64,000 nt of DNA from Paenibacillus sp. (GCF_035510375.1 NZ_DATKHG010000023.1); one strand, 5' to 3'; shown: positions 28,800-57,284, numbered from the stretch's first letter. Notes: a model not told the origin generated them from the letters alone. Made by a program: numbers and translations.

Positions 28800-28804
28800 A
28801 TCGG

Positions 28805-42454: not shown

Positions 42455-43591
42455 ATGATTGAGGCCATGATCAGCCGAAAACAGAAACGAATCATTTTTG
42501 CAGCCATTGTTGGAGGACTGCTGTTGCTCCTGTTTGCGCTGGCTCTTGTTTTGTATTTTCAAGCGAAGCAAGCCAGCTTTCAACAACAGCTCCAGTCCGA
42601 ATACGAAGCGAAGATCAAGAAATCGGAGACGATGGAACAGGCCGCAAAAACAAGGATTTTGGCGGCCGCTCGGAGCATTCCATCCGGAACGACCCTTCAG
42701 GCGGAGGATGTGAAGGCGGTGGAGGTGCCCGCCGATCAGGCGTCTTCCGGGAGTCTCAAGGAATCAAGCGCGGCGGTCGGCAAAATCACCAAGATCGATT
42801 TGCAGCCGAACACCCCGCTCGTTGCTTCGATGCTGTTTGAAGACATGCCGATTGCGAGAGATATACGGATGCAAGAATTTAATGTCATACAGTTGCCTTC
42901 GAATCTGCAAAAAGGACAATTTGTCGATGTTCGGATCAACTTCCCGACCGGAGAGGATTTTATCGTCCTTAGTAAAAAGAAAGTCCGGGAACTGTCCGGC
43001 ACGATCGTTTGGTACGAAATGAACGAAACCGAAATCATGAGGGCTTCCAGCGCCATTATCGACGCCTATTTGCAAGGAGCCAAGCTGTATGCGCTGACCT
43101 ATGTCGATCCGGGATTGCAGGAAGCGGCGGTTGCCAACTATCCGTCCAACCCGAAGGTACTGGATTTAATGCAACGAGATCCGAACATTTTGGAAGAAGC
43201 GAAAACCGCACTCGCCCGAGGGCTCCGTACAACGCTCGACAACAACCTGAAAGCGATGAGCGACACGGACAAAATGCGGGTAACAAGTGGAAGTGTCACC
43301 GTTCAGCAGCAACTGCAAAACGAACGCATTACGACGAAGCAGAATAATGAGTTCCGGTTGAGCGCGCAGCAGCAGGTCCAGCGAACCGCCGTGGAACAAC
43401 AAAGTTCAACGAACCAAACGAAACCGAATCAAAATGAGTCCGCTACTCAGCCGAGTGCGCCGGCCTTGCCCGATCCGGCAATAGAAACGCCGACACCGGC
43501 TCCGGCCCAGAAACCGGGCGATGTCAAAGAGCCGCCCAAAACGGACCGGCTTAAAGATGTGTTCAATCAACCGAAGACCGGCGGTTCATAA
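42455..43591 (+). CDS. CpaB/RcpC-like pilus-assembly protein (TM anchor, SAF domain, Q/P-rich tail)
   Basis: N-terminal TM, then a SAF-type segment (ARSIPSGTTLQAEDVKAVEVP) and a CpaB-like body. Confidence 0.65.
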   Translation: MIEAMISRKQKRIIFAAIVGGLLLLLFALALVLYFQAKQASFQQQLQSEYEAKIKKSETMEQAAKTRILAAARSIPSGTTLQAEDVKAVEVPADQASSGSLKESSAAVGKITKIDLQPNTPLVASMLFEDMPIARDIRMQEFNVIQLPSNLQKGQFVDVRINFPTGEDFIVLSKKKVRELSGTIVWYEMNETEIMRASSAIIDAYLQGAKLYALTYVDPGLQEAAVANYPSNPKVLDLMQRDPNILEEAKTALARGLRTTLDNNLKAMSDTDKMRVTSGSVTVQQQLQNERITTKQNNEFRLSAQQQVQRTAVEQQSSTNQTKPNQNESATQPSAPALPDPAIETPTPAPAQKPGDVKEPPKTDRLKDVFNQPKTGGS

Positions 43592-43605: not shown

Positions 43606-44331
43606 ATGAAACAAATCGTTTTTTTCGGTGCGCCGGACAAAAGCCACCTTCTGCTTGTGTTGGGCAAGCTGCTGACTGCTGCGGGTCTGCGGGTGCTGCA
43701 TGTCGATTCGACGATCGCACAGTCGGCGCAGGGATATCTCCCGCAGTCGGATGAACGGACGGGTGCTTTCGTGACCGAATTTGAGGGATTGGACGTCGCT
43801 GGCGGCTTTATTACGTACAACCAGTTGGATCGCTATATGAAGCAAATGGAAGGCAAGTGGCCGCATTACGATGTCATGCTGCTCGATACGGATCATGCCG
43901 AGTTTGTCAAAGGCCGGGAGTTGGAGGCGTTCGCTCATCGCGTTTGGTGCAGCAGCTTCGAAAAATTGGCGCTGCAGAAAAACGCTGAATTGATAAAGCG
44001 GCTGTGTCTGGCGGAATCCGCCGCGCAGCCGCTGCCGTTTTTCAAGCTGCTGTATCCGTTCGTGCAGACCACAATCACCGAGGCGTATATTCATTCGCAC
44101 TACGAGGATGATCCTGTCCAGTGGCTGGAACCGGTATTCCGCATTCCGCTCGATGATCGGGATGTATCGGCAACAATTGATAACCAACATCACGCCCGGA
44201 TCGATGTGCGAAAGCTGTCCGGGGCCTATATCCAAACGGTATTTTCCATGTCAAGGACGCTGTTCGATATGGACGGGCGAACCGTCAAAACGGCGTTGAA
44301 ACAGGTCAGGAGGAATCGCCGTGGGAGTTAA
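43606..44331 (+). CDS. MinD/ParA-fold protein with a degenerate P-loop
   Basis: IVFFGAPDKSHLL in place of KGGxGK[ST]. The Walker-B-like segment YDVMLLDTD is retained. Confidence 0.5.
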   Translation: MKQIVFFGAPDKSHLLLVLGKLLTAAGLRVLHVDSTIAQSAQGYLPQSDERTGAFVTEFEGLDVAGGFITYNQLDRYMKQMEGKWPHYDVMLLDTDHAEFVKGRELEAFAHRVWCSSFEKLALQKNAELIKRLCLAESAAQPLPFFKLLYPFVQTTITEAYIHSHYEDDPVQWLEPVFRIPLDDRDVSATIDNQHHARIDVRKLSGAYIQTVFSMSRTLFDMDGRTVKTALKQVRRNRRGS

Positions 44332-45154
44332 CGTTGTTTTCTGGAGTCCGGTGCCGGGACAAACGGGCAACACGACGAACTTGGCGGCCGCCGCCGCGCT
44401 GCTTGGTCTTGAATGTTCCTCGCGTTTGCTGCTGTTCGGCCATTTGCAAAGCCGTCGCGCCGTTATGGAACAGGCGTTTATGAAGCGCAGAACAGAGTCG
44501 CGCGAGCCAGGTTTTGCCGCCGATTCAGGCATTGACGCATTAGCGCGACTTGCTCAAAACGGCAAGCTGTCGCCGGAGATGATTCGGGATTACACGTTGC
44601 CGCTGCTTAAGGACCGGCTCGACCTGCTGCCGGGTTCGAATAAGCCGGACAAAACCTTTATCCCCGGCATGAAAGAAGTGCTTCTGCCGTTGTTGGAATC
44701 AGCCAAGCGGTACTACGACCTGATTTTAATCGACGGCGGCAGCGGTACGGGATCCGGATGGACCCAGGAGCTGCTGAAAAGCGCTGATCTGGTCGTCGTC
44801 AGTTTGAATCAAAGCCGCTACGTATGGGAGCGTTTTTTTCAACAACAAGAATTACTGCTGAATGGAAAAATGCGTCTTCTCGTTGTCGGGCAGTACGATC
44901 GGCATTCCCAACATACAGCTAAAAATATCGCCCGACAGCATAGGATGAGCGTCCCGCTCTATCCGGTTCCGCATCTTGCGGCCTTTATGGATGCTTCGCA
45001 GGAAGGCCGTGCGATTGATTTCTTGTTTCGCAACCGCAGCGCATCGCGCGATCATGAAAATCATTTTTTCATGCAATGTGTCCGGGGACTGACCGAAGCC
45101 ATCATCGAACGGGCCGGAATAAACAAGCCGTTTTTCGGCGGAAAGGGGGAGTAG
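44321..45154 (+). CDS. MinD/ParA-fold protein with a degenerate P-loop (Lys replaced by Asn)
   Basis: VVFWSPVPGQTGNTTNLAAAAALL versus the canonical S.KGGVGKTT. YDLILIDGGSG and ADLVVVS are retained. Overlaps the previous gene by 11 nt. Confidence 0.55.
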   Translation: MGVNVVFWSPVPGQTGNTTNLAAAAALLGLECSSRLLLFGHLQSRRAVMEQAFMKRRTESREPGFAADSGIDALARLAQNGKLSPEMIRDYTLPLLKDRLDLLPGSNKPDKTFIPGMKEVLLPLLESAKRYYDLILIDGGSGTGSGWTQELLKSADLVVVSLNQSRYVWERFFQQQELLLNGKMRLLVVGQYDRHSQHTAKNIARQHRMSVPLYPVPHLAAFMDASQEGRAIDFLFRNRSASRDHENHFFMQCVRGLTEAIIERAGINKPFFGGKGE

Positions 45155-45157
45155 CGG

Positions 45158-47029
45158 ATGCTTGGTCTATTGAACGGACTGCTCATCCTTGCGCTTCTTC
45201 TGCTATCGGCCTCGCTGTTTTACTTCCGTATGAGCGGGCGCAAGTTGGAGAAGCCGCCGGAAGAGCGGATCTATTCGATCGACGCAATGACCGATTATGT
45301 CAAACAAACGCTGCATGATCTGACGAGCAGCAACCTGTATGATCTCGGTCTATCCGAAGAGGAGTTCCGGCGTCGGAAAAACAAGCGTGCGGAACTGAAG
45401 AAGGCGCTGCGCGGATGCACGTCCGGGGATATGCGGGACAAGGCGTATGTGAAGCAGTTTTTGGCCGACTTGCTGGTTCAAAACTGCAAATTGGATGAAA
45501 CGAACATCAATCGGATTATCCCGTTCGATGATCCATACGAGCTTTCGCCGCAGGATCAATTTGAAATTTTAATGCATCAGTACAAGAAACGCTATCGTCA
45601 CGATGCGCTCAGCGAACTGATTCACAAGTACAAGTTGGACCGGCCAAAGCTCGGGATAGAGGATGGTCGCACCGAATCGTACCGGATTACGGCCGAGGAA
45701 ATCCATGACATTTATAAAAAGGAAGCAAAGAGGCTGCATTTCGAGGACAAGCTGCATATCGTGGCGCAGCGTATTTACCAGCAATACAAGGGATTTAGCG
45801 TCGTCGATGAAATACGGGATATGAAAATCGACGGCGTCTCCGGCGGCGTATCCGGTTTGCCGCCTTCCGTATGGGAGGGGGAATGGGAGTTGCAGGCCGA
45901 TGCGCTGCTGCGCGAAGTTCCGAAGTCCCACGACAGCGTCTGGATTTTCTACAAAGGAAAATCCATTCATCTTAACTTCCTCTCCTTCGGTTCGGAGAAC
46001 GAACTGAAGCGGGTCTGTCAGAACATCTACAAGCACAATTATCCCGGCCAATTATCGGAAGCGAACGGCTTCAAAGTAAATGAGATGGCAGACGGCTCTC
46101 GTGTGGTTGTGCTGCGCCCCCGGTTTTCAGAATCGTGGGCGTTTTTTGTGCGAAAATTCGATGTGCAAAGCGCCACGCTGGAGCAACTCATACGGGATGA
46201 TAACGCTCAGCTCCCCATTGGGTTGATTGCTTCTCTTGTCAAGGGGGCGCGGATTACCGCTGTCACCGGCGCGCAGGGGAGCGGGAAAACGACTCTGCTG
46301 ATGGCGATGGTCAAATTCATTTCCGCCACGTTTACGATTCGGGTGCAGGAGATGAGCTTCGAGCTTCACTTGCGGAAAATTTACAAGGACCGCAATATCC
46401 TCAGTTTCCGCGAGACGGAAACCATCTCAGGGCAGGACGGGCTGGACATCCAGAAAAAGACGGACGGCACCGTGAATATTCTCGGCGAAGTGGCGACTGA
46501 TCCGGTTGCGGCGTGGATGATCCAGATGGCGCAGGTCGCTTCGCTCTTTACGCTCTTTACCCACCATGCCAAAACGTTTCGCGATCTGGTGTACTCGCTC
46601 AGGAACTCGCTGTTGAAGACCGGCGTGTTCACAAACGAAAATGTCGCCGAACAGCAGGTAATCAGCGTCATTAATTTCGACATTCATCTCAAACGCGATG
46701 GGAACGGACATCGCTATATCGAGCGGATTACCGAATGTGTCCCGGTCGATCAGGAAATGGAGTATCCCGCTCCATACCGAGAGTGCGATAAGCTGGAAGA
46801 AAAGATGGCCGCGTTTATGAATACAGCTGTCGAATATTTCCGGCGTTCCACTGACCGAAAGTTGTACGAAGCCCGAAATGTGGTCGAGTGCCGTGACGGC
46901 CGCTATGTGGCCGTGCATCCAATATCGGAACGAAACGTGCGAGAGATGCAGGAGCATATGTCGGAAGCGGATCGTGCAGCATTTCAAGCGTTTCTGGCGG
47001 CGAATTGGGGTGAGCGGGATGGAACTTAA
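45158..47029 (+). CDS. CpaF/TadA-VirB11-family secretion ATPase (divergent), with an N-terminal TM segment
   Basis: Walker A (VTGAQGSGKTTLL). GEVATDPVAAWMIQMAQV...THHAKT corresponds to the GEvR..Ea..m.qA..TGH region of T2SSE ATPases. Confidence 0.7.
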   Translation: MLGLLNGLLILALLLLSASLFYFRMSGRKLEKPPEERIYSIDAMTDYVKQTLHDLTSSNLYDLGLSEEEFRRRKNKRAELKKALRGCTSGDMRDKAYVKQFLADLLVQNCKLDETNINRIIPFDDPYELSPQDQFEILMHQYKKRYRHDALSELIHKYKLDRPKLGIEDGRTESYRITAEEIHDIYKKEAKRLHFEDKLHIVAQRIYQQYKGFSVVDEIRDMKIDGVSGGVSGLPPSVWEGEWELQADALLREVPKSHDSVWIFYKGKSIHLNFLSFGSENELKRVCQNIYKHNYPGQLSEANGFKVNEMADGSRVVVLRPRFSESWAFFVRKFDVQSATLEQLIRDDNAQLPIGLIASLVKGARITAVTGAQGSGKTTLLMAMVKFISATFTIRVQEMSFELHLRKIYKDRNILSFRETETISGQDGLDIQKKTDGTVNILGEVATDPVAAWMIQMAQVASLFTLFTHHAKTFRDLVYSLRNSLLKTGVFTNENVAEQQVISVINFDIHLKRDGNGHRYIERITECVPVDQEMEYPAPYRECDKLEEKMAAFMNTAVEYFRRSTDRKLYEARNVVECRDGRYVAVHPISERNVREMQEHMSEADRAAFQAFLAANWGERDGT

Positions 47030-49088
47030 ATTGCTGTTCTCCCTCGTGCTTGGCGGGGCGGTCGTGTTTTTCCTTGCCTCCGTCCTCCTATTCAAATGGC
47101 TGTCCCGAAAAAATACGGGCGCCGGTTCAATCCGGGAATACGAGGAACTTCGACTTCCCGGAAAAGCCACGAACAAGCGCGCCGTGCACAGTTTGTTGCA
47201 ACGTATTTACGCGGCAAACGAACGGGTTCCTTTGCTTCGCCGATATCTTACGACCATCCGCAAGCGGCTGTCGGCGCTGCAACCGTACGACGAATGGAAG
47301 CTGCGGCTGGAGACGATCAAGATTGCGCTTGCGGCATGGGGCGTCCTGTTTGCTGCCGCCGTTCCAGTTATCCTGTTCATCCGCGACCCGATGACGCTTC
47401 TTATGATCGCAACCGGTCTCAGGGCGCTTCACGGGATGATCGCAGACGTATTCGTTCACCGATTGGAAAACCGGCTGCTCCGCCAGCTTCGCCACTTTAT
47501 GGCCGATGTGCGGCACCACTATCACCGGCACGGCATGGTGGAGGAAGCGATCTACGACGCATCAGATGCCGCGCCGTATGAAATGTCTTTGCACGGGCAG
47601 GAAGTGTACGCGGCGCTGACCGCCAGCCATCCGGAAGAAAAACTGGAGCAATATTATGAGGCTGCGCCGAATCGGTTTCTCAAAGGACTGGCCGGCATAT
47701 CGCATCTGGTCAAAGAATACGGCGACAAGACGCTCCAGAACGGGTCGCTCTACTTAAAAGCGCTCGGACGGCTGACGACCGAACTGAATCTGGACATTTT
47801 GCGACGGGAGAAGCTGAGCTTCTTGCTGCAGGGACTGACGGCGATTGCGCTCATCCCGGTTATGTTCACGAAGCCGATTGAAAGCTGGGCGCGAAACTAC
47901 TTCCCGGCGATGGACGATTTTTACGCAGGCAAGCTTGGCTGGATCACGAAAATGGTCATCTTGCTGATCATTCTCGGCTCGTATGTGCTGCTTCGCAAAA
48001 TGCGGGAATTGGACGGTATATACAAAGCAAGTCGCAAGCCGTGGGAACAGAGGGCTTACGATGTTCCAGGGGTGCGGCGGGTCATCGACCGGATCGTTCC
48101 CGAACCCGGCGCGCGCGAAGCCTCCCGCAGTATCATGCTGCTCAAGGAAACGAACTCGCCGCTCCGATTGGAGTGGTTTTTTGTGCAGCGCGCGGCAATA
48201 AGCGCTCTGGCTTTTTTGATGACGCTCGGATTGTTTGTGACGCTGCACATCGTCTCCAAACACCAACTTCTTTACGCGCCGGTTAAGCCGGACACGATGT
48301 TTGGCCGCCTATCGCCGCAGGAAGAAGCCAAAGGCAGGGAAGCGGCGGCGCTCGACCGCCGGATCATGGCGGATGTGAAAGGGGTGAAAACCAAACTCTC
48401 GGAATCGATTTTGACCGAACTGCGAAAAGACCCGCGGCTTGTACGGAACGAGGCGCAGCTTCGCGCCGCAGCAAAGCGCATCCTGAACAAAATGGATGCG
48501 GTGAGCGGCGAGTACCTGAAGTGGTGGGAGGTGATGCTCGCTTTGTTGATCGGCTGGGGCGGCTACTATGCGCCGGTCGGCGTCTTGTTGTTCCAGCGGC
48601 AGATGCGGCATATGGAGATGAAGCACGAGGTCGATCAGTTCCATTCGGTGATCGCCATGCTGTCCGAAATGGACCGGATGTCGGTGGAGCATGTACTGGA
48701 GTGGATGGAGCGGTTCGCGCTTATTTTCAAGGCGCCGATTCAGCATTGTTTGCTTCATTATGAGCATGGCGCCGAGCAGGCGCTTGAAGATCTGAAGGAA
48801 GAAGCGCCGTTTCTTCCGTTTGTCCGCACCGTGGAGAAGCTGCAGCTGGCGGTTGAAAAAATTCCGATCCGGCAGGCATTCGATGATTTGGAATCCGAAC
48901 AAGCTTTTGCCCAGGAGCAGCGCAAGCAGGATTATGAACGGCTGATCGAAACGAAAGCGGGATGGGGGAAAATGATCGGCTTCGCGCCGATGATGTCCCT
49001 TATTTTTGGTTATCTCGTCTTTCCGCTCGTCTATGTCAGCTTGGATCAAATGTCCGTGTATTACGAGCAAATTCAGCGGATCCAGTAG
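47019..49088 (+). CDS. Large polytopic platform protein, apparent TadB-TadC (T2SSF x2) fusion
   Basis: 689 aa. Two halves each pair cytoplasmic helical segments with TM pairs, as in GspF/TadB/TadC. The start overlaps the ATPase 3' end by 11 nt. Confidence 0.55.
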   Translation: MELKLLFSLVLGGAVVFFLASVLLFKWLSRKNTGAGSIREYEELRLPGKATNKRAVHSLLQRIYAANERVPLLRRYLTTIRKRLSALQPYDEWKLRLETIKIALAAWGVLFAAAVPVILFIRDPMTLLMIATGLRALHGMIADVFVHRLENRLLRQLRHFMADVRHHYHRHGMVEEAIYDASDAAPYEMSLHGQEVYAALTASHPEEKLEQYYEAAPNRFLKGLAGISHLVKEYGDKTLQNGSLYLKALGRLTTELNLDILRREKLSFLLQGLTAIALIPVMFTKPIESWARNYFPAMDDFYAGKLGWITKMVILLIILGSYVLLRKMRELDGIYKASRKPWEQRAYDVPGVRRVIDRIVPEPGAREASRSIMLLKETNSPLRLEWFFVQRAAISALAFLMTLGLFVTLHIVSKHQLLYAPVKPDTMFGRLSPQEEAKGREAAALDRRIMADVKGVKTKLSESILTELRKDPRLVRNEAQLRAAAKRILNKMDAVSGEYLKWWEVMLALLIGWGGYYAPVGVLLFQRQMRHMEMKHEVDQFHSVIAMLSEMDRMSVEHVLEWMERFALIFKAPIQHCLLHYEHGAEQALEDLKEEAPFLPFVRTVEKLQLAVEKIPIRQAFDDLESEQAFAQEQRKQDYERLIETKAGWGKMIGFAPMMSLIFGYLVFPLVYVSLDQMSVYYEQIQRIQ

Positions 49089-49107
49089 CAACACAATGTT
49101 TAGAATC

Positions 49108-49137
49108 AGCCTTTCCTGTTGGAAGGCTATTTTTTTA
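49108..49137 (+). terminator. Intrinsic terminator/attenuator between the platform gene and the first small anchored protein
   Basis: AGCCTTTCC-tgtt-GGAAGGCT followed by ATTTTTTTATT. Confidence 0.7.
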
Positions 49138-49173
49138 TTCCCCAAAATTATTGTAAAAGGAGAGAAACGATCC

Positions 49174-49653
49174 ATGTCCAACGCACAAAAAGCACTGGTA
49201 ATGGCCGCAGGCATTTTCCTCGCTATTGCCCTTATTACACTGGCGGTTGTATTGTTCATATCCGCCCAGGATTCGACCAAAGCGGCGCAAAGCAACTTCA
49301 GCAACATTCAAACCGAGCTGTCGCAAACAGCCTTCACCGTCTATGACAATACGCTCGTTTCCGGAAGCCAGGTCGTCAACGCGCTGCGCAAGTTCAGCGA
49401 TCAGGATCAATTCGGCATTCAAATCGTGACGGGGAAAAATCCGGCGGGACAATGGTACGGCAAGGTAATCAATACGGGCGTTCCGATGGACAGCGTTACG
49501 TACGGTTCCGTTGTCGGTCCGGCCCCCGGACGGCTCGATCAGACGATGGATGAAGCGGACATCAACTATGTCAATCCGAGCGGCAAGTTCCGGGCTCAGC
49601 TTGTGAAGGACAGCAGCAACGTGATTCGCGGCATTGTGTTCCGTCAGCAATAA
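49174..49653 (+). CDS. N-terminally anchored small protein (159 aa), pilin-position protein without a class III signal motif
   Basis: AAAGGAGAG RBS. MSNAQKALVMAAGIFLAIALITLAVVLF followed by a soluble beta-rich-looking domain. A GC-rich hairpin follows the stop codon (49667-49697). Confidence 0.6.
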   Translation: MSNAQKALVMAAGIFLAIALITLAVVLFISAQDSTKAAQSNFSNIQTELSQTAFTVYDNTLVSGSQVVNALRKFSDQDQFGIQIVTGKNPAGQWYGKVINTGVPMDSVTYGSVVGPAPGRLDQTMDEADINYVNPSGKFRAQLVKDSSNVIRGIVFRQQ

Positions 49654-49725
49654 GAAACAGGGTGAATCTGCCCCCGCGCTTATGCGCGGCGGGCAGGTTC
49701 GCTGTAAAGAGAGGAGGACGAGCGC

Positions 49726-50127
49726 ATGAGCCATTCCGTGCGAACGATGATCGACATGAGCTTTGCTTGTCTCGTTTTTGTGATGGCGGCCACGGTCGGG
49801 TTGCTGCTGTTTCAAAGCGGCGCGGCTGTGCTGGAGACGACTTATGTGTCGGGAAAAGCGCAGGATCGCAGCGTAAAACCGACGCTTTCCCCGATAGCCG
49901 GAGACGGCAGCGTGTCCGGTGCGGAAGTTTTGCAGACGATCGCCCATATCGCGGATATCGGAACGGAGATCGCAGTAGATGGGGTCAACTATGCCCCGAC
50001 AATGGAACGGGAAGAAATCGCTGCTTCAGCTGTTCGAGTGAATGGCCGCTTTACTCCTGTGTATGAACGCGGTCGGGATGGGCAGTTGCAGCGAATCGTC
50101 TTTGTATCGCGCGGAGGTGTGCGATGA
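49726..50127 (+). CDS. N-terminally anchored small protein (133 aa)
   Basis: Single N-terminal hydrophobic helix (FACLVFVMAATVGLLLF). Overlaps the next gene. Confidence 0.55.
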   Translation: MSHSVRTMIDMSFACLVFVMAATVGLLLFQSGAAVLETTYVSGKAQDRSVKPTLSPIAGDGSVSGAEVLQTIAHIADIGTEIAVDGVNYAPTMEREEIAASAVRVNGRFTPVYERGRDGQLQRIVFVSRGGVR

Positions 50128-50672
50128 ATAGTTTTTCCAAGGTATTTGCCATTCTTATTTCCATTTTGCTTTTGTACGTCTTCCCGATTTCTGCCACGTT
50201 CAACCAGCAGGATGACGTATCGGAGCTGGTTGCGCTGCGGGCAACGACTTCGTTTGTCGATGCGGTCAGGGACAAGGGATTCATTACCCCGACCATGTAT
50301 AACGACTTCTTGCAAGCGATACATGCGACGGGCAATACGTTTGATGTGCAGATGGAACACGGGCAAAAGCGTTACATTCCGGTGTATGACGATCCGGCGC
50401 GTCCGGATACGTTTCGGAACGATTACACTGTTCAATATGATAAGTTTTACAACGCACAAATTTTGCCGGTGCTGTTCCCGGACAGCGCTGCGGGCAAGGA
50501 CGATCCGAAACGCCGCTACAAGTTGCAGGCGGGCGATACGTTTTATGTGGTTGTAAAGAATACGAACCGGACTAACGGTACAATCCTTCATGATTTTCTG
50601 AATAACGCCAGCAGCCCTCAAGAAAAAATCTTCATTCCCTACGGAGGCGTTGTCCGAAATGAAGATGATTAA
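50124..50672 (+). CDS. N-terminally anchored small protein (182 aa)
   Basis: N-terminal helix (VFAILISILLLYVFPI). ATGA overlap with the upstream gene. Confidence 0.55.
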   Translation: MNSFSKVFAILISILLLYVFPISATFNQQDDVSELVALRATTSFVDAVRDKGFITPTMYNDFLQAIHATGNTFDVQMEHGQKRYIPVYDDPARPDTFRNDYTVQYDKFYNAQILPVLFPDSAAGKDDPKRRYKLQAGDTFYVVVKNTNRTNGTILHDFLNNASSPQEKIFIPYGGVVRNEDD

Positions 50673-51639
50673 CTGGGCGATTGTAGGGGTATTGATTCTG
50701 CTTCCTTTTTATGTGATCAATCGGACGGATACCGAGACGCAGCGGCGGATGATGATTTCGGAGCTGCGCTATGATGCAGCGCTGGATACGGCGGTGGACG
50801 ATGCGGCGCAAGCGCTGCTTATCAATGTCGACCAGCGGCAGGAAGCCAGGTATGAATCGGCCAAACGGGTGCGGGTGAACAAGGAGGAAGCCATCGATTC
50901 GTTTTACCGGACGCTGTACATGAACTTCGGCATCGCGGAAGATACGATTGCCCAAGGCGTGTTGAACCGCTATATTCCGGCGGTAATCGTCATAGGCTAT
51001 GACGGGTTTTGGGTGTACGCCGAAGAAGAGTTTGCCAACGCGGCCGGCGAAACGGAAATACGCCCGGTGTGGGGGCCGAAGAAGCCATACGCTTATGCCG
51101 ATACACTGGGGAACAGCGTGTCTTTTACGCTGGATGATTATGTGACTGCGTACGAAGCCGGAAGCCGGACATGGCGAGAGGGGTTCCGGTCGGAAATCCA
51201 AATAACGACCGCAATTCCGCTTTTGCGCGATGCGGAAGTATTCGAACAGGTGCGGCGCAGCACGATTGTAAACGCCATCCAGAATGAGCTCGCGTTCCGA
51301 ATTAACCGGCACAACCAATACGCATCGCGGTATGGGATCTCATACACATTTACGCTGCCGACAATCAGCGACGAAGAATGGAACAATACGGTGAACGATG
51401 TCGGCGTCATGGCGTTTGTCCAGGGCATTCCAATGGGACGCAAAACGTATAACAACTATGCGCTGGGCGGCAGCCGGGTATTGAAAAAGCCGGTGATTAT
51501 CGGGGCGGTTAAAGAAGGCAAAAAGGTGTATTACCGCAGTGCCTGTGCTTTCCCATACCCGGTAGAAGAAACGTTTGCCAGTGAAAAAGAAGCTTCACAA
51601 AAAGGGTATATGCCGCTGCCATGCAGCAACGATCCCTGA
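50659..51639 (+). CDS. N-terminally anchored protein (about 326 aa)
   Basis: GGAGG 11 nt before ATG 50659. N-terminal helix (INWAIVGVLILLPFYVI). Confidence 0.55.
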   Translation: MKMINWAIVGVLILLPFYVINRTDTETQRRMMISELRYDAALDTAVDDAAQALLINVDQRQEARYESAKRVRVNKEEAIDSFYRTLYMNFGIAEDTIAQGVLNRYIPAVIVIGYDGFWVYAEEEFANAAGETEIRPVWGPKKPYAYADTLGNSVSFTLDDYVTAYEAGSRTWREGFRSEIQITTAIPLLRDAEVFEQVRRSTIVNAIQNELAFRINRHNQYASRYGISYTFTLPTISDEEWNNTVNDVGVMAFVQGIPMGRKTYNNYALGGSRVLKKPVIIGAVKEGKKVYYRSACAFPYPVEETFASEKEASQKGYMPLPCSNDP

Positions 51640-51770
51640 TTCATCCCTGATAAATCGAAATTCATTTTCGCAGGGGTGGACAGGTGGGCACAGGGATTAT
51701 ATCATGGAGGCACAACGTCGATAATTTCCTGATATTCTCAATAATTCTCGAATAAAGGAGTGAACCGAGC

Positions 51771-52877
51771 GTGAAAAAATGGGTATGCGCAAGCTTGGCG
51801 TTGATGATGTTATTTGGACTTATGACCGGGATTTCCAAAGCGGCGGCAAACGCGCCAACGTTTGTCAGCGTCGTCATGGACGGACAAAAGATCTGGTTTC
51901 CCGATGCGCAGGCATTTGTTGATGAAAACAACCGGACACTCGTTCCGGTCCGCTTTGTCGCTGAAAAGATGAATGCCAAAGTGGGTTGGCAATCGGAGAC
52001 GATGACGGTGCCGATCGAGCGAGGCGACCAGCAAATCCAGCTGACGATCGGTGAAAACAAAGTGATTGTCAATGGCAAAGAGGCGGCTTTTGACACGCAG
52101 GCGATTATGAGCGGAGGCAGAACATTCGTCCCGCTGCGGTTTGTAAGCGAGGTGCTGGGTGCGGAAGTCAAGTGGGACGGTTCGACATCGACCGTATTTA
52201 TCTCAACAAAAGAAGATGCCGAGGCGAAGTATGACCAATGGGGCCGCCTGATGCGTACAACGGACCTCCCGAAAAACGCGAAGGATTATCCGTATATTTT
52301 AGATGATATGCCGAATGAGATGTATGAGTTGGGCTATCCGTATTCCAATCCTGAGCGAAGCAAAGTTTCTGCTGTTCTGTACGAAACCATTCCAGAATAT
52401 AACAAGCGAAATGTAGATATTTGGATGAACCGTCTTAAAGATTTCGGTGCGCTGTGGCTGAATGTGGACTACAAGACCATCGACGATAACTGGGCACAGG
52501 CTCTTTTCGCTACGAAAATGCAAAATTCCAATGCGGAGTTGAAGTATATCCAACGCTATGTAGATTGGGTAAAGGAAAATAAAATTCAAATAGAAGGATA
52601 CCTTGATCCAGAGCCTTCCATGATATTTAACGATGGCTTCGGAGCAGACTATGTACGGTCAAAGTTTCGCATTAAATTTAATTCTTTTAAGGAAAGCAAG
52701 GATTTACTTTATGATACATGGTTTCCGAGTGACGAGACCTTTGATAAAAATGAGTGGTATGAAGGGGTTGCGGACATAAAAATGGGAACGAACGTAGGGG
52801 GAGACTGGGGAAGTACGTTAAAGGTTGCTCCCAGCGCCAGCTTATTCTATAACCACTTGATTAAGAAGGTGGAATAG
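51771..52877 (+). CDS. Secreted protein with a copper-amine-oxidase N-terminal (stalk) domain plus an unknown C-terminal domain
   Basis: Signal peptide, then NNRTLVPVRFVAEKMNAKVGW...GGRTFVPLRFVSEVLGAEVKWD, the repeated motif typical of Cu_amine_oxidN1. GTG start. Confidence 0.75.
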   Translation: MKKWVCASLALMMLFGLMTGISKAAANAPTFVSVVMDGQKIWFPDAQAFVDENNRTLVPVRFVAEKMNAKVGWQSETMTVPIERGDQQIQLTIGENKVIVNGKEAAFDTQAIMSGGRTFVPLRFVSEVLGAEVKWDGSTSTVFISTKEDAEAKYDQWGRLMRTTDLPKNAKDYPYILDDMPNEMYELGYPYSNPERSKVSAVLYETIPEYNKRNVDIWMNRLKDFGALWLNVDYKTIDDNWAQALFATKMQNSNAELKYIQRYVDWVKENKIQIEGYLDPEPSMIFNDGFGADYVRSKFRIKFNSFKESKDLLYDTWFPSDETFDKNEWYEGVADIKMGTNVGGDWGSTLKVAPSASLFYNHLIKKVE

Positions 52878-52879
52878 GA

Positions 52880-55800
52880 ATGTCTGAGAAAAAAGCATAT
52901 AAACGATTATTGTGCATGCTGCTGGCATGCATTTTTTTATTCCCATTCATTTTATCAAGTCAAGTTCATGCAGCTCCACCGGAGATTTGGACAAGAGATG
53001 GAATGATCAATTTCTCAATAACAAGCACAGCTGCAACTTCGTCCATCAAATACAGAACAGTAGGCTGGACGGTGCGAAGGGATCAATTATGTTCGAATAC
53101 AACGCCAAAGCAGTGCGGTGATCCGAGAAGCGGCAAATACGTTTCTTTTTTAAATCAACAAGTGCGTCAAGTAGGTCAAGATCCCAATCCGCCTATTCCT
53201 GGGGCGCCATTAACCACAATTTATGAAGTAAGTGAAGAACTTGTAACAAAAGGAATGTGGCAGGCGGGGATGGGCGATATCCAGGACAATGATGATTTGT
53301 ATCTTTATGCCATCATGGTCTCAATTAATGGCGACGGCTCGGTGCGTAAAGGGCCTTTCTATACGTTGGAAGAGATCAAGCGTGCCGAAGGATGGCGTTA
53401 TCCGGACGATCTGGACGATTATTTCGGTCTCCATGTTCCGTATCGAAGCGCAGACTTTCCGGTGGACGTTATTGCTAAAACCGAGGACGGCAAAGTGATT
53501 AATAAGCCGGATGTCACGTTTCTCAAGGGCAAATACAAGGTAGGAGAAACGATCAACCACGAGTTTCCAACCGCCATCGAGGACGGCGGGAAGACATACA
53601 CGATCGTCCGCTCGTATTTATCGCCCAAACAAGACCCGTCGCAGAAGGATTGGGAGCAGGAGAACCCGGAAACGAACCCGAAGGTGCGCACTCGCAGCTT
53701 TACCGTTCATCTTGGCGGTACGGACGCTATCGCCGAATACAGGGAAAGCAATCCGGTGAAGGCGATGTTCCTCACGGATAAAGGAGAGAAGCTCCAAGGG
53801 GATGAAGAACTGGAGCCGAAGAAAACGGAGGAAGAGGCCAATTACACCTTCCCTGCATCGCTTACTTACAAAGGGGATACGTACGAAATTAACCGCTCCT
53901 ATATCACGAACAACACCGACCCGAACAAGGAACTCTTTGTTCAGGAAAAGAACGATCCGAAGCTGCGGGAACGGTCCATCACCGTTGCATCCGGCGGCTC
54001 TAACTTTATCGGCATTTATAAAATCCCCTCGCCGGTGACGGTCGCGTCCCGTATCCTAGCCCCGGATACAGTTGAACAGTCCGTCAATAATGTCGAAGGG
54101 GATTTTATTTTTGAGGCGGAAGCATCAGCCAACCTGAAATCGTACGAAATCACCGACATTCAAAATGCCGCGCTAGTTAACCCAAGCGACCGAACCGGAA
54201 CGCTTAGCGGAACAAAGGATGGGAAAACAATTCCCATCAAAATCCCGTTTTCTTCCGGCGACAGTCTGACGGTGCAAATCACGGTTATCGTCAAAGATGC
54301 GCTGGATCAAAGCGGCGATTCCACAGCGAAGCATACAGTGAAAAAATCGGATGGGGGTCAGCCGCCAACCGCAGGAACGACGCAAGAGGCCGAAGCGATG
54401 GACCCGAGCGCAACGGGCGTCATTCGCGCGGATCAGCGCGGAGCGGAGAAGTTCGATGTGATGAAGGGAATTCCGACCTCGGAGAGCCTGTACGTGGACG
54501 CTTTGTCGAAAGCGTATTTGTACCGGAACGAGTTCGCCCAAATGACCGGCGCGAAGCAATATCCGATTCAAGTGAGTAAAACGTATACGCTGACGTGGAC
54601 GGAATCCTATACCGTTTCGGGCGCGGATGGCAAGTCGACAACGGTTTACGTGCCGCGCTCGGCCACGCAGACGGTGACCAAAAGCTACACGGTGGAACGC
54701 AAGTACAGCTACTGGGTCATCAACAATCTTGAAGTGTATGGCATTCAAAAAGCCGACTTTGCCAATTACGCGCTGCCTTCAGGAAAAGTAACGTTGCAAC
54801 CGAACGGTTATACGCCGCCAAACGTGTCCGCCACTCACGATACTTCGTTGGATGCGCATATTACCGATCCGTTCTTTTCGAATGTGACGCTTCCCGGACA
54901 GACGATTTCCGGCGGATCCAGCCGGCCGTCCGTTCCGAACGAGGATTGGAAGAGCGTAGCGGAGAAGGCGATCGGAAAAATCAAGGTGAAAAACGACTCG
55001 CTCGTCTTCAACGGAACAACGGTGATGGACAACCAGACGGTGGAGGAACAGGCTCCGGCGCCAGGTACGATTCCGGCTCCCCCGACGATCGGGCAGGATG
55101 TGCTATACGGGAAAGGCTACATGATCGATTCCGGCAAAGTGAACAAAGCCAACCAGCCAAGCTCGGGTACGATATCTTATTCGCTCGTCAAAGGCATTAA
55201 CGGCGGGTCGAATCAAACGTTTCCGATTAACGGCATCAACACCGTAACCGTGCATACGCCGATCGTCAACTATGCGTCCGTTTCGGATGACAAGGCGCAT
55301 AACCAGAAGACACAACCGACCTCAGGGCGATCGGCGCTCATTTTGGACCGACCGTTTACCGTAACCGTCCCGACCAGCGGACAGCACCGGGACATTCCAG
55401 GCTACGGCAATCGGGATTATGCGAAGTACACGAAAGAGAAGCAAGTCTGGTTCCCTTTTGACGTGTACAGCGCCGACAAATCGACGTTCATTCCGAAAGA
55501 AACGTGGATATCCATCCCGGTCGGGCAGTCTCAGACGACATTTTTTCTGCCGGTGTGGGTCGATGAAGGCAACTATGACGCGCTGTTTCGCACCTTTGCA
55601 GAAAACAGCCCGCAGGCCTCCTTCGGTACCCAGATGAACGCCAATCTGGAGGTAAACAATCACGTTGCCACGCAGGTCGTTCCGGTGGAAGTCATTGGCC
55701 GCCTATATGATTTCCGCATCACCGACATCGCCGACTATAACTGGGAGACAGTATTCCGGACGCAGAAAGGGAGCGCTGCATCAACCGGAAATGCTTATTG

Positions 55801-56710
55801 GGTCGGAACTAAGGGGATCGACGGCGCGGCGCGAGGAAATCAACATCCGTTCGTACTTCCGGTTCGGCAAGGCAGCTATCCGGAGGACGGGAAGAAAAAC
55901 GTGGCTGTGAAGACGGGATATCACATTAAATTTGATGTGAAAACGAAGGGCAACATGTTCGGATCCGGCGACGGCATCCGAATCACGCCGACCTTCTATT
56001 TTGTCGACAGCATTGGCCGAAACCGCCAAGAGGTAGATCTCTATTACCACTCAGGAAATAAGAAGTTTATCCGAATTGGATCGAGCGACGATGTGGAGCG
56101 GCGCAATATTACGCTGGATACACGGCTGAGGAACGTGCCGCAGCAGGAACTGAACAGCACGGCAAGCTCGCTTTGGGGTTTGTTCGGCGGTTCCGGCACG
56201 AAGCAGGCGTTTACCGACCAGTATATGAACGACGTCAAAAAACCGATCTACGTCGGCGGGTATGACATGATGCTGCTGCCGCCCCAGCTTCGGACGTTTA
56301 TCGGCAGCATGAACGCGCCGTCCGGCGTTAACGCCGCACGCGCCAACGCTTCGGTTCAGCGCTGGTTCGGCGAGTACAGTTTGCCCGCCGCGCCCTATGT
56401 CGTGCCGAAAGGATTCAATCTGGCCGAATACGGGCGCACGAATCGGCTGGATGACAAGTCGCCGATCTTCCTGAAGGACGGGTATATCATCGTCAACTTC
56501 AACATTGAGACGATCCGCAACCGGGATCTAAACAACCCGCATTTGCAGTACATCTACGCGCCCTTAAACAACCAGTGGCAAATGGAAGGATTTCAGCGCA
56601 ACTTTACAGATCCGTACGGCGCGACGTTCCAATTGAAGGACGGCGACATCGTATTTTATCATGCAAACGTTTCATCCTACGATGATTTTGGCACAGGCGG
56701 AACGCATTAG
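52880..56710 (+). CDS. Giant secreted surface protein (1276 aa) with internal ~95-aa tandem repeats; candidate adhesin
   Basis: Signal peptide (LLACIFLFPFILSSQVHA|A). Repeats ...G(K/D)TY(T/E)I.RSY......DP......(E/Q)...(N/D)PK.R.RS.TV..GG...I..Y... occur twice in tandem at about aa 190-390. Confidence 0.7.
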   Translation: MSEKKAYKRLLCMLLACIFLFPFILSSQVHAAPPEIWTRDGMINFSITSTAATSSIKYRTVGWTVRRDQLCSNTTPKQCGDPRSGKYVSFLNQQVRQVGQDPNPPIPGAPLTTIYEVSEELVTKGMWQAGMGDIQDNDDLYLYAIMVSINGDGSVRKGPFYTLEEIKRAEGWRYPDDLDDYFGLHVPYRSADFPVDVIAKTEDGKVINKPDVTFLKGKYKVGETINHEFPTAIEDGGKTYTIVRSYLSPKQDPSQKDWEQENPETNPKVRTRSFTVHLGGTDAIAEYRESNPVKAMFLTDKGEKLQGDEELEPKKTEEEANYTFPASLTYKGDTYEINRSYITNNTDPNKELFVQEKNDPKLRERSITVASGGSNFIGIYKIPSPVTVASRILAPDTVEQSVNNVEGDFIFEAEASANLKSYEITDIQNAALVNPSDRTGTLSGTKDGKTIPIKIPFSSGDSLTVQITVIVKDALDQSGDSTAKHTVKKSDGGQPPTAGTTQEAEAMDPSATGVIRADQRGAEKFDVMKGIPTSESLYVDALSKAYLYRNEFAQMTGAKQYPIQVSKTYTLTWTESYTVSGADGKSTTVYVPRSATQTVTKSYTVERKYSYWVINNLEVYGIQKADFANYALPSGKVTLQPNGYTPPNVSATHDTSLDAHITDPFFSNVTLPGQTISGGSSRPSVPNEDWKSVAEKAIGKIKVKNDSLVFNGTTVMDNQTVEEQAPAPGTIPAPPTIGQDVLYGKGYMIDSGKVNKANQPSSGTISYSLVKGINGGSNQTFPINGINTVTVHTPIVNYASVSDDKAHNQKTQPTSGRSALILDRPFTVTVPTSGQHRDIPGYGNRDYAKYTKEKQVWFPFDVYSADKSTFIPKETWISIPVGQSQTTFFLPVWVDEGNYDALFRTFAENSPQASFGTQMNANLEVNNHVATQVVPVEVIGRLYDFRITDIADYNWETVFRTQKGSAASTGNAYWVGTKGIDGAARGNQHPFVLPVRQGSYPEDGKKNVAVKTGYHIKFDVKTKGNMFGSGDGIRITPTFYFVDSIGRNRQEVDLYYHSGNKKFIRIGSSDDVERRNITLDTRLRNVPQQELNSTASSLWGLFGGSGTKQAFTDQYMNDVKKPIYVGGYDMMLLPPQLRTFIGSMNAPSGVNAARANASVQRWFGEYSLPAAPYVVPKGFNLAEYGRTNRLDDKSPIFLKDGYIIVNFNIETIRNRDLNNPHLQYIYAPLNNQWQMEGFQRNFTDPYGATFQLKDGDIVFYHANVSSYDDFGTGGTH

Positions 56711-56745
56711 TATTTGGTTACTTCATCGTTTTATCGCGAGGCGCG

Positions 56746-56773
56746 AAAAGGACCTGAACGGGGGTCCTTTTCG
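56746..56773 (+). terminator. Intrinsic terminator after the giant gene
   Basis: AAAAGGACC-7 nt-GGTCCTTTT. Confidence 0.75.
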
Positions 56774-56792
56774 CATTCATGGAGGAGTGCGC

Positions 56793-57068
56793 ATGTATGC
56801 CATCCCATCTGGTTGCGGATGTTTTTGCCCGGTCCAGCCGCCTGTTTATTACGGGACGGGATTGACGGAGGAGGGGGAATGGATGCCGTCGCTGGAGGTC
56901 ATATCCAAAGAGAAGAACGGTTTCGGGGATACGTATTACTACATCCGGGATCAAAACGGCGTAACGATCCAGGTCTACGAAGGGGAGTTGGGGACGTTTA
57001 TGAAAAAGAACGGCGTTTCGGAACTGAAAGAAGGGAAGTCGTTCATCTATCCTCAGAAGAACCGATAG
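56793..57068 (+). CDS. Hypothetical protein (91 aa)
   Basis: GGAGG RBS before ATG 56793. The ORF-track extension upstream spans the terminator. Confidence 0.5.
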   Translation: MYAIPSGCGCFCPVQPPVYYGTGLTEEGEWMPSLEVISKEKNGFGDTYYYIRDQNGVTIQVYEGELGTFMKKNGVSELKEGKSFIYPQKNR

Positions 57069-57089
57069 ACTCCGGAAAGGAGCAGTCGC

Positions 57090-57284
57090 ATGAGCTATGA
57101 CGATTTCAAACGAAAAGTACAAAAAGCGTACCCGGACGCCAAGGTTTCTTATTCCTCAAATGGCGCCCAGCATACTGCGAATGTCGAAGGGCGCTTGGTC
57201 CTTTACACGAACGCCGATAGCGACGCCATTTACGGCATGATGAACGGCGGCGTACCCATAGGACGGGCGATCGGTATCGAATAG
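57090..57284 (+). CDS. Hypothetical protein (64 aa)
   Basis: AAAGGAG RBS with coding-like sequence. Confidence 0.5.
   Translation: MSYDDFKRKVQKAYPDAKVSYSSNGAQHTANVEGRLVLYTNADSDAIYGMMNGGVPIGRAIGIE

Follow-up and report, generated by a model that had tools for sequence, protein, structure and literature searches.

The 64-kb window of Paenibacillus sp. DNA analysed here, i.e. the whole stretch, contains a series of genes on the + strand whose products resemble the core components of Tad pilus machines, followed by four genes for proteins with one hydrophobic helix each near the N-terminus. The series begins with a TadZ/CpaE-like ATPase of the ParA family (522 aa; 40602..42170), which has an N-terminal receiver-like region and matches the Pfam profiles AAA_31, CbiA, ParA and MipZ over residues 271-477; homologs keep the position of this gene in the related ICE-type loci L069, L070 and L077. 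In about 80 loci, the conserved part of the operon opens with the gene of a SAF-domain protein that is CpaB/RcpC-like and has a TM helix at its N-terminus (378 aa; 42455..43591; Pfam SAF, E = 2e-11), for which the NCBIfam profile TIGR03177 (pilus_cpaB) gives E = 1.5e-11, below the cutoff. X1, a cytoplasmic protein of 241 aa (43606..44331), is conserved in nearly all loci and has no match in Pfam; it is possibly a degenerate ParA/TadZ-like protein. By position and size, it is the counterpart of TANB77 protein 928, to which structural homology to TadZ was assigned (PMC11680825). As for X2 (277 aa; 44321..45154), it is ParA/MinD-like, with weak matches to AAA_31, MinD and ParA, is conserved in related loci and corresponds to TANB77 protein 929, labelled CpaE-like (PMC11680825).

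The next gene codes for a secretion ATPase of the CpaF/TadA-like type, the N-terminus of which includes a hydrophobic helix (623 aa; 45158..47029). Its best match among solved structures is CpaF (8rkd, 9e24; E = 7e-11), compared with 0.03 or worse for PilT, GspE and DotB. TIGR03819 is matched at E = 8e-10, Pfam T2SSE at 24.4 bits, just under the cutoff of 24.9, and Clostridia orthologs are found by phmmer at E ~1e-225. The inner-membrane platform that follows (~690 aa, ~8 TM helices; 47019..49088) was identified by hhalign as a fused TadB/TadC-like (T2SSF) protein. In this comparison of a platform alignment against 10 annotated canonical TadB/TadC sequences, residues 2-330 are matched with a probability of 95.6% (E = 1e-8), and residues 509-618 of the C half with a probability of 50% (E = 1.6e-4). 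HMMER gave no match of the platform to Pfam, NCBIfam or PDB, and hhalign was negative with a single E. coli GspF sequence, being positive only with the 10-sequence TadB/TadC profile. By homology, then, the core machine is Tad-like, with its CpaF-clade ATPase, TadB/TadC platform, CpaB/SAF protein and TadZ/CpaE ParA-like proteins. The original prediction had kept in play a different kind of machine altogether, and we reject that option because of this Tad-like core.

The gap between the platform gene and p1, the first of the four small genes, harbours a terminator- or attenuator-like hairpin with a T-run (49108..49137, + strand). The hairpin itself, which had been predicted there, was recovered at 49108-49128 with 8 base pairs and is followed by ATTTTTTTAT. 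In 12 of 13 Paenibacillaceae relatives, this position is likewise occupied by a hairpin and T-run, although the stem sequence differs in several of them. The runs flagged 'RNA?' yielded contigs of 13-60 kb with flat depth across the region, which indicates that the sequence is present in those samples and says nothing about transcript ends or levels. The 5' flank of p1 reads AAAGGAGAG.

p1 (159 aa; 49174..49653; N-terminus MSNAQKALVMAAGIFLAIALITLAVVLFISAQ...) is a candidate major pilin-like subunit, and p2 (133 aa; 49726..50127) is a divergent p1 paralog and candidate minor subunit. p3 (182 aa; 50124..50672), whose gene overlaps that of p2 by an ATGA, and the larger p4 (326 aa, MKMINW...; 50659..51639) are candidate minor or tip subunits. 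All four are real ORFs of the + strand with a single hydrophobic helix, as originally predicted, and in each case this helix is preceded by 2-7 residues. The sizes first given for p1, p2 and p3 stand, while the start of p4 needed correction: its longest ORF, of 329 aa, starts at TTG 50650, and both the database orthologs and a 100%-identical entry of 326 aa start at ATG 50659. Two genes for Sec-exported proteins come downstream, S, with a cell-wall-binding domain (368 aa; 51771..52877; Pfam Cu_amine_oxidN1, E = 2e-36), and D, a large DUF5704 surface protein (1276 aa; 52880..56710; Pfam DUF5704, E = 3e-76). The gene at the position of S codes for an SLH domain in Lysinibacillus pBsph and for cell-wall-binding repeats in C. 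argentinense. D follows the operon in Bacillus, P. larvae, Lysinibacillus and Paenibacillaceae loci and is a candidate adhesin or machine partner; our literature search found no paper mentioning DUF5704.

The p1 family comprises 905 clusters at E <= 1e-3, and no filament has been reported to be seen for any of its members. A third homolog search with a diverse profile mostly returned the same Paenibacillus proteins. Conservation in the family is higher in the N-terminal 55 residues (0.83) than in the head (0.64), and tandem p1 paralogs within a locus share ~97% identity over their first 35 residues versus ~50% beyond. In the AF2 monomer model of p1 (pLDDT 80), residues 3 to 55 form a helix, the distal part of which is modelled with a pLDDT of only ~60 (residues 41-60), and an alpha/beta head follows; in that of p4 (pLDDT 80, also as a monomer), a helix from 2 to 53 precedes a helical and beta-rich body. 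In both models, an N-terminal helix of ~52 residues is thus joined to a globular domain. p2, with its single N-terminal TM helix, is a paralog of p1 according to profile comparison (hhalign probability 86%, E = 5e-6, 130 columns). The N-terminal helix of p3 resembles that of p1 (hhalign probability 46%), and a motif FxxxDDxS just past the TM helix is conserved in the p3 alignment. Clostridial p3 homologs range from 250 to 1500 aa and carry C-terminal LamG/ConA lectin, Ig-like, Gly-rich and Flg_new modules. p4 is conserved in Paenibacillaceae and Clostridia loci. The long helix and head of p1 and p4, the pattern of the p1 paralogs and the lectin or Ig-like modules of p3 are hallmarks of pilins.

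Searches with p1-p4 gave no match in Pfam (E <= 0.1) or NCBIfam. Sequence-profile searches of PDB with p1, p3 and p4 returned nothing meaningful, p4 has no match in PDB either by sequence or by fold, and neither Foldseek nor profile comparison linked p1-p4 to solved or canonical pilins. When p1-p4 were aligned with TadE/F, TadG and Flp, hhalign probabilities reached at most 12.5%, against 91% and 69% for the controls TadEF-TadG and TadEF-Flp, so that by profile they are not of the Flp/TadE type. The comparison with Gsp pseudopilins was negative as well, a test of low power because bona fide TadE/F proteins also score below 5% against them. Strong homology to unrelated membrane-anchored families had been considered at the outset, and none was found to sortase substrates or spore proteins. 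Judging from the sequences, the four genes probably encode pilin-like subunits of a divergent Tad-type pilus machine widespread in Firmicutes.

With the Tad/Flp systems (type IVc; Aggregatibacter tad, Caulobacter cpa), the locus shares a CpaF/TadA-clade ATPase, a TadB/TadC-type platform, a CpaB SAF protein and TadZ/CpaE ParA-like proteins, as well as subunit genes placed directly 3' of the platform gene. It differs from them in having no Flp (50-80 aa, G↓xTAIEY), no TadE/F/G signature and no TadV/CpaA, in the fusion of TadB and TadC, in an ATPase that is membrane-anchored and ~200 residues longer, and in a major subunit with a globular head, which Flp lacks. Imam et al. 2011 (PMC3244431) described Gram-positive tad-like loci, from C. 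kluyveri, C. cellulolyticum, C. bolteae and D. hafniense, whose biosynthetic genes have only a distant relationship to those of other tad loci and whose products all lack a prepilin motif. Compared by description, those loci were reported with tadV, unlike the present operon family (PMC3244431). The series of one major and graded minor subunits ending at ~326 aa is reminiscent of the T2SS pseudopilus, in which GspG, H, I, J and K have 145, 169, 125, 195 and 327 aa; however, the sequences show no detectable similarity, the G↓FTLxE motif is absent, and the envelope has no outer membrane that would need crossing. The IncI R64/TP114 thin pili (type IVb) likewise represent a type IV filament operon on a conjugative element, and they offer a functional analogy to ICE- or plasmid-borne copies with an adhesin-fused p3. 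Adhesin-bearing minor pilins of IncI thin pili are reported to stabilise mating pairs (PMC9045228). Nevertheless, these pili belong to the T4bP branch of the TFF superfamily, are made by Gram-negative bacteria and rely on canonical prepilins and a dedicated peptidase, PilU.

Cleavage of the leader by an A24 peptidase is treated as a defining and universal step of type IV filaments, including pili, T2SS, Com pili and archaella. The absence of Flp, TadE or type IV prepilin motifs from p1-p4, proposed on first reading, was confirmed, and no such motif emerged on alignment. A PilFind-type scan of all six frames of the window for (A/G)x4(D/E) followed by a TM segment returned nothing real; genuine Flp and TadE proteins, taken for comparison, do carry G↓xxxxE[FY], as they should. 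Within the helix, the p1 family has no conserved acidic position. The window likewise proved to be devoid of an A24 peptidase gene (TadV/CpaA/PilD), as predicted. Its ORFs with at least three predicted TM helices are all identified otherwise or without Pfam match, and searches that used E. coli GspO and two TadV proteins as queries (phmmer, hmmsearch) gave no credible hit, either there or in the ±10 kb around 82 related loci. Among the readings originally offered, that of uncleaved pseudopilin-like subunits fits best. We favour the use of the subunits in an uncleaved, 'leaderless' form, with moderate confidence and on sequence grounds, because the leaders have only 2-7 residues, only 56% of 130 p1-family representatives have Ala or Gly at the presumed -1 position, no signal peptidase I site is conserved and no A24 gene is linked. 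We know of no precedent for an uncleaved pilin in the type IV filament superfamily.

The machine and its subunits might be as described and p1-p4 nevertheless be true prepilins, cut by a host A24 enzyme (ComC, PilD or TadV) encoded elsewhere on the chromosome that would accept a relaxed archaeal-like site, [K/R]-[A/G]↓[L/I]. ComC or PilD is encoded elsewhere in most Firmicutes. The N-terminus of p1 in the window, MSNAQK-A↓LVMAAG, would suit such an enzyme, with a cut after Ala7, as K6-A7↓L8 is similar to the class III sites of archaea. Archaeal type IV pili (Epd, Aap, Ups; PibD/EppA) are built of globular-head pilins without Glu5 whose short leaders end in [K/R]-[G/A]. To our knowledge, a class III signal peptidase is never missing from archaeal loci or genomes, and their -1 residue is Gly or Ala practically without exception, in contrast with the proportion given above for position 7 here. 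Among the 130 representatives, 62% carry K or R at position 6 and 24% have F, I, M or V at the presumed -1; moreover, many Paenibacillus orthologs of p1 have Ser rather than Lys at -2 (MNNASSALKV). In p3 and p4, the residue after R/K is V, I, F or M, and neither Ala nor Gly is present. An archaeal-type leader, [K/R]-[G/A] and a hydrophobic helix, fits p1 of the window but neither p3 nor p4, and the family does not consistently conform to it. Several TFF systems, such as MSH, borrow a peptidase while having none of their own, and the Tad systems are thought to descend from the archaeal lineage of Epd-like pili, with pilins lacking Glu5 (PMC6668835). In contrast, the present operon moves on plasmids and ICEs among very different hosts with a peptidase never aboard, and we consider processing by a host enzyme rather unlikely.

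It is also conceivable, if improbable in our view, that p1-p4 are not filament subunits at all. They would then be bitopic anchored proteins of a fixed envelope-spanning complex or of a short piston-like pseudopilus, aiding the export or positioning of S and the DUF5704 protein, or else serving the conjugation channel of the element. The lack of a structural pilin match, the atypical, membrane-anchored ATPase, the wall-binding and large surface proteins always encoded downstream and the T4SS genes beside the operon, both here and on a C. argentinense plasmid, are in line with such a role. However, the signal peptides of S and D are of the ordinary Sec kind, and no outer membrane stands in the way of these proteins. 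In addition, the operon is chromosomal in P. larvae and in gut Clostridia loci, with no T4SS or element genes within ±10 kb, and tandem p1 genes with identical N-termini and variable heads fit better with a polymerising, surface-exposed major subunit. As for a model in which the N-terminal helices are Sec signal peptides cut by signal peptidase I, leaving soluble secreted or wall-associated proteins, it appears very unlikely indeed. The I-S-A of p1 at 29-31 fits the -3/-1 rule, with a cut after residue 31 (ISA↓QD), and 86% of the representatives have G, A or S at position 31. Yet 45% of them carry N, R or K at position 29 (-3), the hydrophobic stretch of ~22 residues is TM-like, the AF2 helix of p1 is continuous from 3 to 55, the N-terminal region is the best conserved part, the opposite of what is seen in signal peptides, and an S26 signal peptidase gene is found nearby in only 1 of 82 loci.

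If the subunits are indeed uncleaved, the following scenario can be proposed. p1-p4 would make up the filament of a Firmicutes machine that is Tad-like (related to type IVc) and divergent, composed of the membrane-tethered CpaF-like ATPase, the fused TadB/TadC platform, the CpaB-like SAF protein and three ParA/TadZ-like proteins. p1, with its conserved upstream hairpin and strong ribosome-binding site, would be the major subunit, its paralog p2 a putative minor one, and p3 and p4 minor or tip subunits; lectin or Ig-like adhesin modules fused to p3 in other lineages would then be carried by such a subunit. The subunits may insert with an N-in/C-out topology through their N-terminal helices and then be extracted and polymerised by the platform and the ATPase, with no removal of the leader by an A24 prepilin peptidase. 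The conserved N-terminus M-[E/D]-N-x-x-K may replace Glu5 in charge pairing. S and D might act as wall-anchored partners or adhesins. For its host, the operon probably provides adhesion, and possibly donor-recipient contact.

The copy of the operon in the window lies inside an integrative conjugative element; neither att repeats nor a tRNA marking the ends of the ICE were found within the window. The operon keeps its entire gene order in 79 genome loci and on many plasmids, and complete homologs of it were found in Paenibacillus, Cohnella, Lysinibacillus, Bacillus and Clostridium. Our literature search found no paper tying Tad-like loci of Paenibacillus to conjugation. More tentatively, the operon could represent a peptidase-independent branch of type IV filaments, in which pilins are made 'mature' and the prepilin peptidase step has been lost. 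Such self-sufficiency would allow it to pass between Bacilli and Clostridia aboard Gram-positive plasmids and ICEs, and the product could be an adhesion or mating pilus; in that role, it would be the first pilus-type contact device of Gram-positive conjugative elements. Uncleaved subunits in a conserved and widespread Tad-derived machine, if confirmed, would mean that the cleavage step is dispensable and would provide a minimal system in which the purpose of the leader could be studied.

A putative pilus cluster of the uncultured gut order TANB77 was described by Kim et al. 2024, Nat Commun, as exclusive to that order (PMC11680825), and it is proposed to make this gut clade a predictor of the response to checkpoint immunotherapy (PMC11680825). 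Its order and sizes, taken from Table 1 of that work, match those of the window: a CpaB-like protein of ~358 aa, ParA-like proteins of 231 and 280 aa, a TadA-like ATPase of 640 aa with 1 TMH, a 693-aa TadC+TadB fusion with 8 TMH and then a run of 1-TMH 'pilin-like' proteins (PMC11680825). Homology was measured against loci of uncultured Clostridia with the TANB77-type architecture (L004-L068), to which the core proteins of the window as well as p1, p3 and p4 are homologous (ATPase, E ~1e-225; platform, E ~1e-130). The TANB77 orthologs were called pilin-like from cluster context, size and membrane topology; partial structural homology to TadE/PilV was reported solely for the N-terminal quarter of protein 938, and leader peptides and prepilin peptidase are not mentioned (PMC11680825). 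By gene order and homology, the operon is not exclusive to TANB77, because it is also found in Paenibacillaceae and on plasmids of Lysinibacillus, Clostridium and others. This changes the picture of its distribution and mobility, as the carriers are often plasmids or ICEs, and the machine becomes experimentally accessible because carriers have cultured representatives. Compared with the TANB77 cluster, the window copy sits in an ICE of a Paenibacillaceae host and has single genes for p1, p2 and p3, the last of them short and devoid of adhesin modules, as well as one for a DUF5704 protein.

The 16-kb block between the two methylase genes and a tyrosine integrase gene of an integrative conjugative element (ICE) holds a set of Tad-like genes. 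It begins with genes for a TadZ-like ParA protein and a CpaB-like SAF protein, followed by those for two more ParA-like proteins (X1 and X2), a 623-residue ATPase, a polytopic protein of approximately 690 residues (47019-49088, + strand) and four candidate pilin-like subunits, p1 to p4, and it ends with genes for a Cu_amine_oxidN1 wall-binding protein and a 1276-residue DUF5704 protein. The best solved relative of the ATPase is CpaF (E = 7e-11, compared with 0.03 for PilT/GspE). No family was detectable by HMMER for the polytopic protein. When ten annotated TadB/TadC proteins of plasmid-borne canonical tad loci were combined into a profile, this aligned over its whole length with the N-terminal half of that protein (probability 95.6%, E = 1e-8), and it also aligned with the C-terminal half (probability 50%, E = 1.6e-4). 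As both halves align with TadB/TadC, the protein is a fused TadB/TadC platform. The original prediction had left room for a different kind of machine. With a CpaF-like ATPase, this platform and CpaB- and TadZ-like components, the machine instead belongs to the Tad branch, as a divergent member.

The ATPase is approximately 200 residues longer than CpaF, and its N-terminus (45158-45230) forms a hydrophobic helix, MLGLLNGLLILALLLLSASLFYF. One transmembrane helix (TMH) was also predicted in its ortholog from the uncultured gut order TANB77 (PMC11680825); it is unusual for a TadA to be tethered to the membrane. A 79-residue ORF of no known family (42188-42427) separates the TadZ-like gene from the CpaB-like one. 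It is conserved in the three relatives of the ICE type, one of which, locus L070, has two copies.

The four subunit genes are closely packed, co-directional ORFs on the + strand: p1 (49174-49653, 159 residues), p2 (49726-50127, 133 residues), p3 (50124-50672, 182 residues, overlapping p2 by 4 nt) and p4 (50659-51639, 326 residues). Their predicted sizes and order stand, but the start of p4 is not that of its longest ORF, TTG 50650, since the orthologs and a 100%-identical database entry begin with MKMINW, at ATG 50659. The single N-terminal hydrophobic helix claimed for each protein is indeed present, after 2-7 residues. A good Shine-Dalgarno sequence precedes p1, and the terminator-like hairpin noted upstream of it was found at 49108-49128, followed by a T-run. 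An equivalent hairpin and T-run are present at this position in 12 of 13 Paenibacillaceae relatives, several of which have a stem of different sequence.

As originally reported, p1-p4 carry no Flp or type IV prepilin motif. A PilFind-style scan for (A/G)x4(D/E)+TM in the six frames of the window returned false positives only, and p1-p4 had no Pfam or NCBIfam match; the G|xxxxE[FY] motif was present, as expected, in genuine Flp and TadE proteins retrieved as a comparison. The claim that the window has no A24-type (TadV/CpaA/PilD) prepilin peptidase gene was borne out as well. Its ORFs with at least three TM helices encode ABC permeases, an SDF symporter, a P-type ATPase, an ABC exporter, the platform, a 512-residue protein without Pfam match among the type IV secretion (T4SS) genes, and, outside the element, a 234-residue protein with at least four TM helices and no Pfam match (11962-12666, - strand), which does not match the A24 peptidases GspO and TadV. 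GspO and two TadV sequences used as queries found nothing credible in the window, and the approximately 80 related loci contain neither an A24 homolog nor a recurrent polytopic ORF. The 234-residue ORF and a neighbouring 202-residue ORF, also outside the element and without Pfam match (13143-13751, - strand), fall in a low-GC stretch (0.44 at 12-14 kb, compared with approximately 0.54 elsewhere).

Several features nevertheless make these proteins pilin-like. In AlphaFold2 models (pLDDT of approximately 80), p1 has an unbroken helix over residues 3-55 that leads into a small alpha/beta domain, and p4 a helix over residues 2-53 that leads into a larger body, a predicted layout that is the lollipop of type IV pilins. 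p1 has a full-length paralog in p2 (hhalign probability 86%) and shares its N-terminal helix with p3 (46%). The size series of p1-p4 parallels that of GspG, I, J and K in type II secretion systems. The Clostridia homologs of p3 reach 250-1500 residues, with ConA/LamG lectin, Ig-like, glycine-rich and Flg_new modules, in agreement with the modular minor pilins that Gram-positive type IV pili are known to have, and these modules fix the topology of the homologs as C-out. Loci of Clostridia have two to four tandem p1 genes with divergent heads and a near-identical N-terminus, MDNAQKAIMIGVGLFITIII (median identity of 97% over residues 1-35 and of 50% beyond). Likewise, the first 55 residues are the best conserved part of Paenibacillaceae p1 orthologs (0.83 versus 0.64). 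This trend is the reverse of that of signal peptides, and reading the N-termini as Sec signal peptides is highly implausible. No PDB structure matched the p1 and p4 models, and no similarity to TadE/F/G, Flp or Gsp pseudopilins emerged from profile comparison, a weak test because TadE/F and Gsp also fail to find each other. That p1-p4 belong to an envelope complex rather than to a filament is an unlikely reading.

Whether the subunits are cleaved was addressed by aligning to the p1 of the window 130 p1-family representatives, each standing for one 50%-identity cluster. Position 2 is E or D in 57% of them, position 3 is N in 61%, position 6 is K or R in 62%, position 7 is A or G in 56% and F, I, M or V in 24%, and position 13 is G, S or A in 88%; inside the helix, no acidic residue is conserved. 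A24 peptidases require a near-invariant Gly or Ala at -1, as established for PilD and FlaK, and position 7 falls short of it. In p3 and p4, R/K is directly followed by V, I, F or M. The helix left by cleavage after position 13 would be too short, and at the sole signal peptidase I-like site of the window p1, ISA|Q, the -3 residue is N, R or K in 45% of the representatives. A host A24 enzyme could possibly act on the K-A|L site of the window p1, as the peptidase search covered the 64-kb window, and some type IV filament systems such as MSH use the peptidase of another system (Denise et al. 2019, PMC6668835). Processing by a host peptidase is nevertheless an unlikely reading. As no consistent site emerged among the representatives and no linked peptidase was found at approximately 80 loci in very different hosts, the subunits are, on the simplest interpretation, unprocessed; we consider the chances about even that p1-p4 are leaderless pilins. 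In canonical pilins, charge pairing is performed by Glu5 and the free N-terminus. It is tempting to speculate that the conserved M-[E/D]-N-x-x-K N-terminus might take over this role. Filament formation, the unprocessed state of the subunits and function are what we infer. Altogether, pilin-like subunits without class III signal or peptidase point to a genuine oddity of a conserved, widespread and mobile Tad-derived machine.

The p1 profile retrieved 905 clusters at E <= 1e-3, and a genome scan yielded 79 loci with a common gene order: CpaB, X1, X2, ATPase, platform, one or several p1, p3, sometimes a p1-like gene, p3, p4 and a wall-binding protein. Fourteen loci belong to Paenibacillus, Cohnella and Marinicrinis, and the other 65 to metagenome-assembled genomes of uncultured gut Clostridia. 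The ATPase is well conserved between the two groups (phmmer E of approximately 1e-225), whereas the subunits diverge far more. The closest p1 and p4 homologs are in Paenibacillus and Cohnella, which, with the PrkA/DUF444/SpoVR operon of the window, points to a Firmicute source, most likely one of the Paenibacillaceae. By tblastn, the operon was also found on large plasmids of Cohnella, Thermobacillus, Paenibacillus, Alkalihalophilus, Sporosarcina, Cytobacillus, Lysinibacillus sphaericus (pBsph), C. argentinense, C. botulinum and Butyrivibrio, and conjugation of pBsph-type plasmids has been shown experimentally (PMC13239906). In P. larvae and one Bacillus isolate it has no element genes around it, and only 3 of the 14 Paenibacillaceae loci share the ICE flanks of the window. 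This makes the operon an autonomous module that mobile elements often carry.

Exactly this architecture was described by Kim et al. (2024, PMC11680825), who present the putative pilus cluster as one that only TANB77 has. Their Table 1 lists a CpaB-like protein of 358 residues, two ParA-like proteins, a 640-residue TadA with one TMH, a 693-residue TadC+TadB fusion and seven 'pilin-like' proteins with one TMH, and in their experiments protein 938 activates dendritic cells via TLR4. The TANB77 version of the machine is already described, and our uncultured-Clostridia loci match that description gene by gene. Yet full-operon homologs of the supposedly exclusive cluster, corresponding to 42455-51639, occur in Paenibacillaceae and Bacillus, and on plasmids of Lysinibacillus, Clostridium argentinense/botulinum, Butyrivibrio and Alkalihalophilus. 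Kim et al. are silent on leader peptides and on any prepilin peptidase, and we found no paper on the operon in Paenibacillus or on plasmids, nor on DUF5704. Imam et al. (2011, PMC3244431) described tad-like loci of C. kluyveri, C. cellulolyticum, C. bolteae and D. hafniense whose biosynthetic genes have only a distant relationship to those of other tad loci and whose proteins all lack a prepilin motif; unlike the present family, these loci are reported to include tadV. What appears to be new is the leaderless or peptidase-less character, the homology to culturable Firmicutes and the carriage by ICEs and plasmids.

The ICE of the window extends from approximately 25 kb to at least 63 kb and has a T4SS of the Firmicute Tcp/ICEBs1 type. 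It encodes a coupling protein (25265-27727), a Replic_Relax protein (27921-28799), TcpC (28466-29623), TcpE (30161-30880), a VirB4-like AAA_10 protein (31174-33666), the 512-residue polytopic protein (33663-35201), an M23+SLT hydrolase (35846-36805), the C5 and D12 DNA methylases (37470-40120) and the tyrosine integrase (61884-63026). A search of the window for att repeats or a tRNA that would mark its ends found none. Between a sporulation-related PrkA/DUF444/SpoVR operon (14562-18989) and the T4SS genes lie those for an ISL3 transposase (20089-21414), a truncated-looking P-type ATPase (21579-23252) and an ABC exporter (23273-25027). Four public runs labelled 'RNA?' (X5, X6, X8 and X12), from several organisms, gave contigs of 13-60 kb, approximately 96-97% identical to positions 40000-58000, with flat depth. 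They show that a close relative of the element is present in those samples, a matter of presence with no bearing on expression.

As for the accompanying genes, the one downstream of p4 always encodes a wall-binding domain, whose type varies with the host: Cu_amine_oxidN1 in the window (51771-52877), SLH in the Lysinibacillus locus L084 (15566-16810) and cell-wall-binding repeats in the Clostridium locus L085 (21983-23185). This protein is a possible wall anchor of the machine. In the Clostridia locus L054, two p1 genes lie in opposite orientations (10001-10558, + strand, and 11286-11828, - strand) with identical first 45 or so residues, a layout in which the pilin head might be switched by recombination or inversion. 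Downstream of the platform gene, at distances of 0.5-7.6 kb, the uncultured-Clostridia loci L004-L068 also harbour an additional family of approximately 154 residues with one TMH (MGDSAYQAIYTGVYVFVFII), with 140 copies across 62 loci. It is not detected with the proteins of the window as queries, and it is probably another class of minor subunit, perhaps the counterpart of p2. Lastly, 41 of the Clostridia loci L004-L068 conserve a 412-residue D-Ala-D-Ala carboxypeptidase-like protein, with an SxxK-type motif identified by eye. Its gene lies upstream of that for the CpaB-like protein, approximately 8 kb upstream of the end of the platform gene; its conservation could reflect synteny, or the protein could be a peptidoglycan-remodelling partner.
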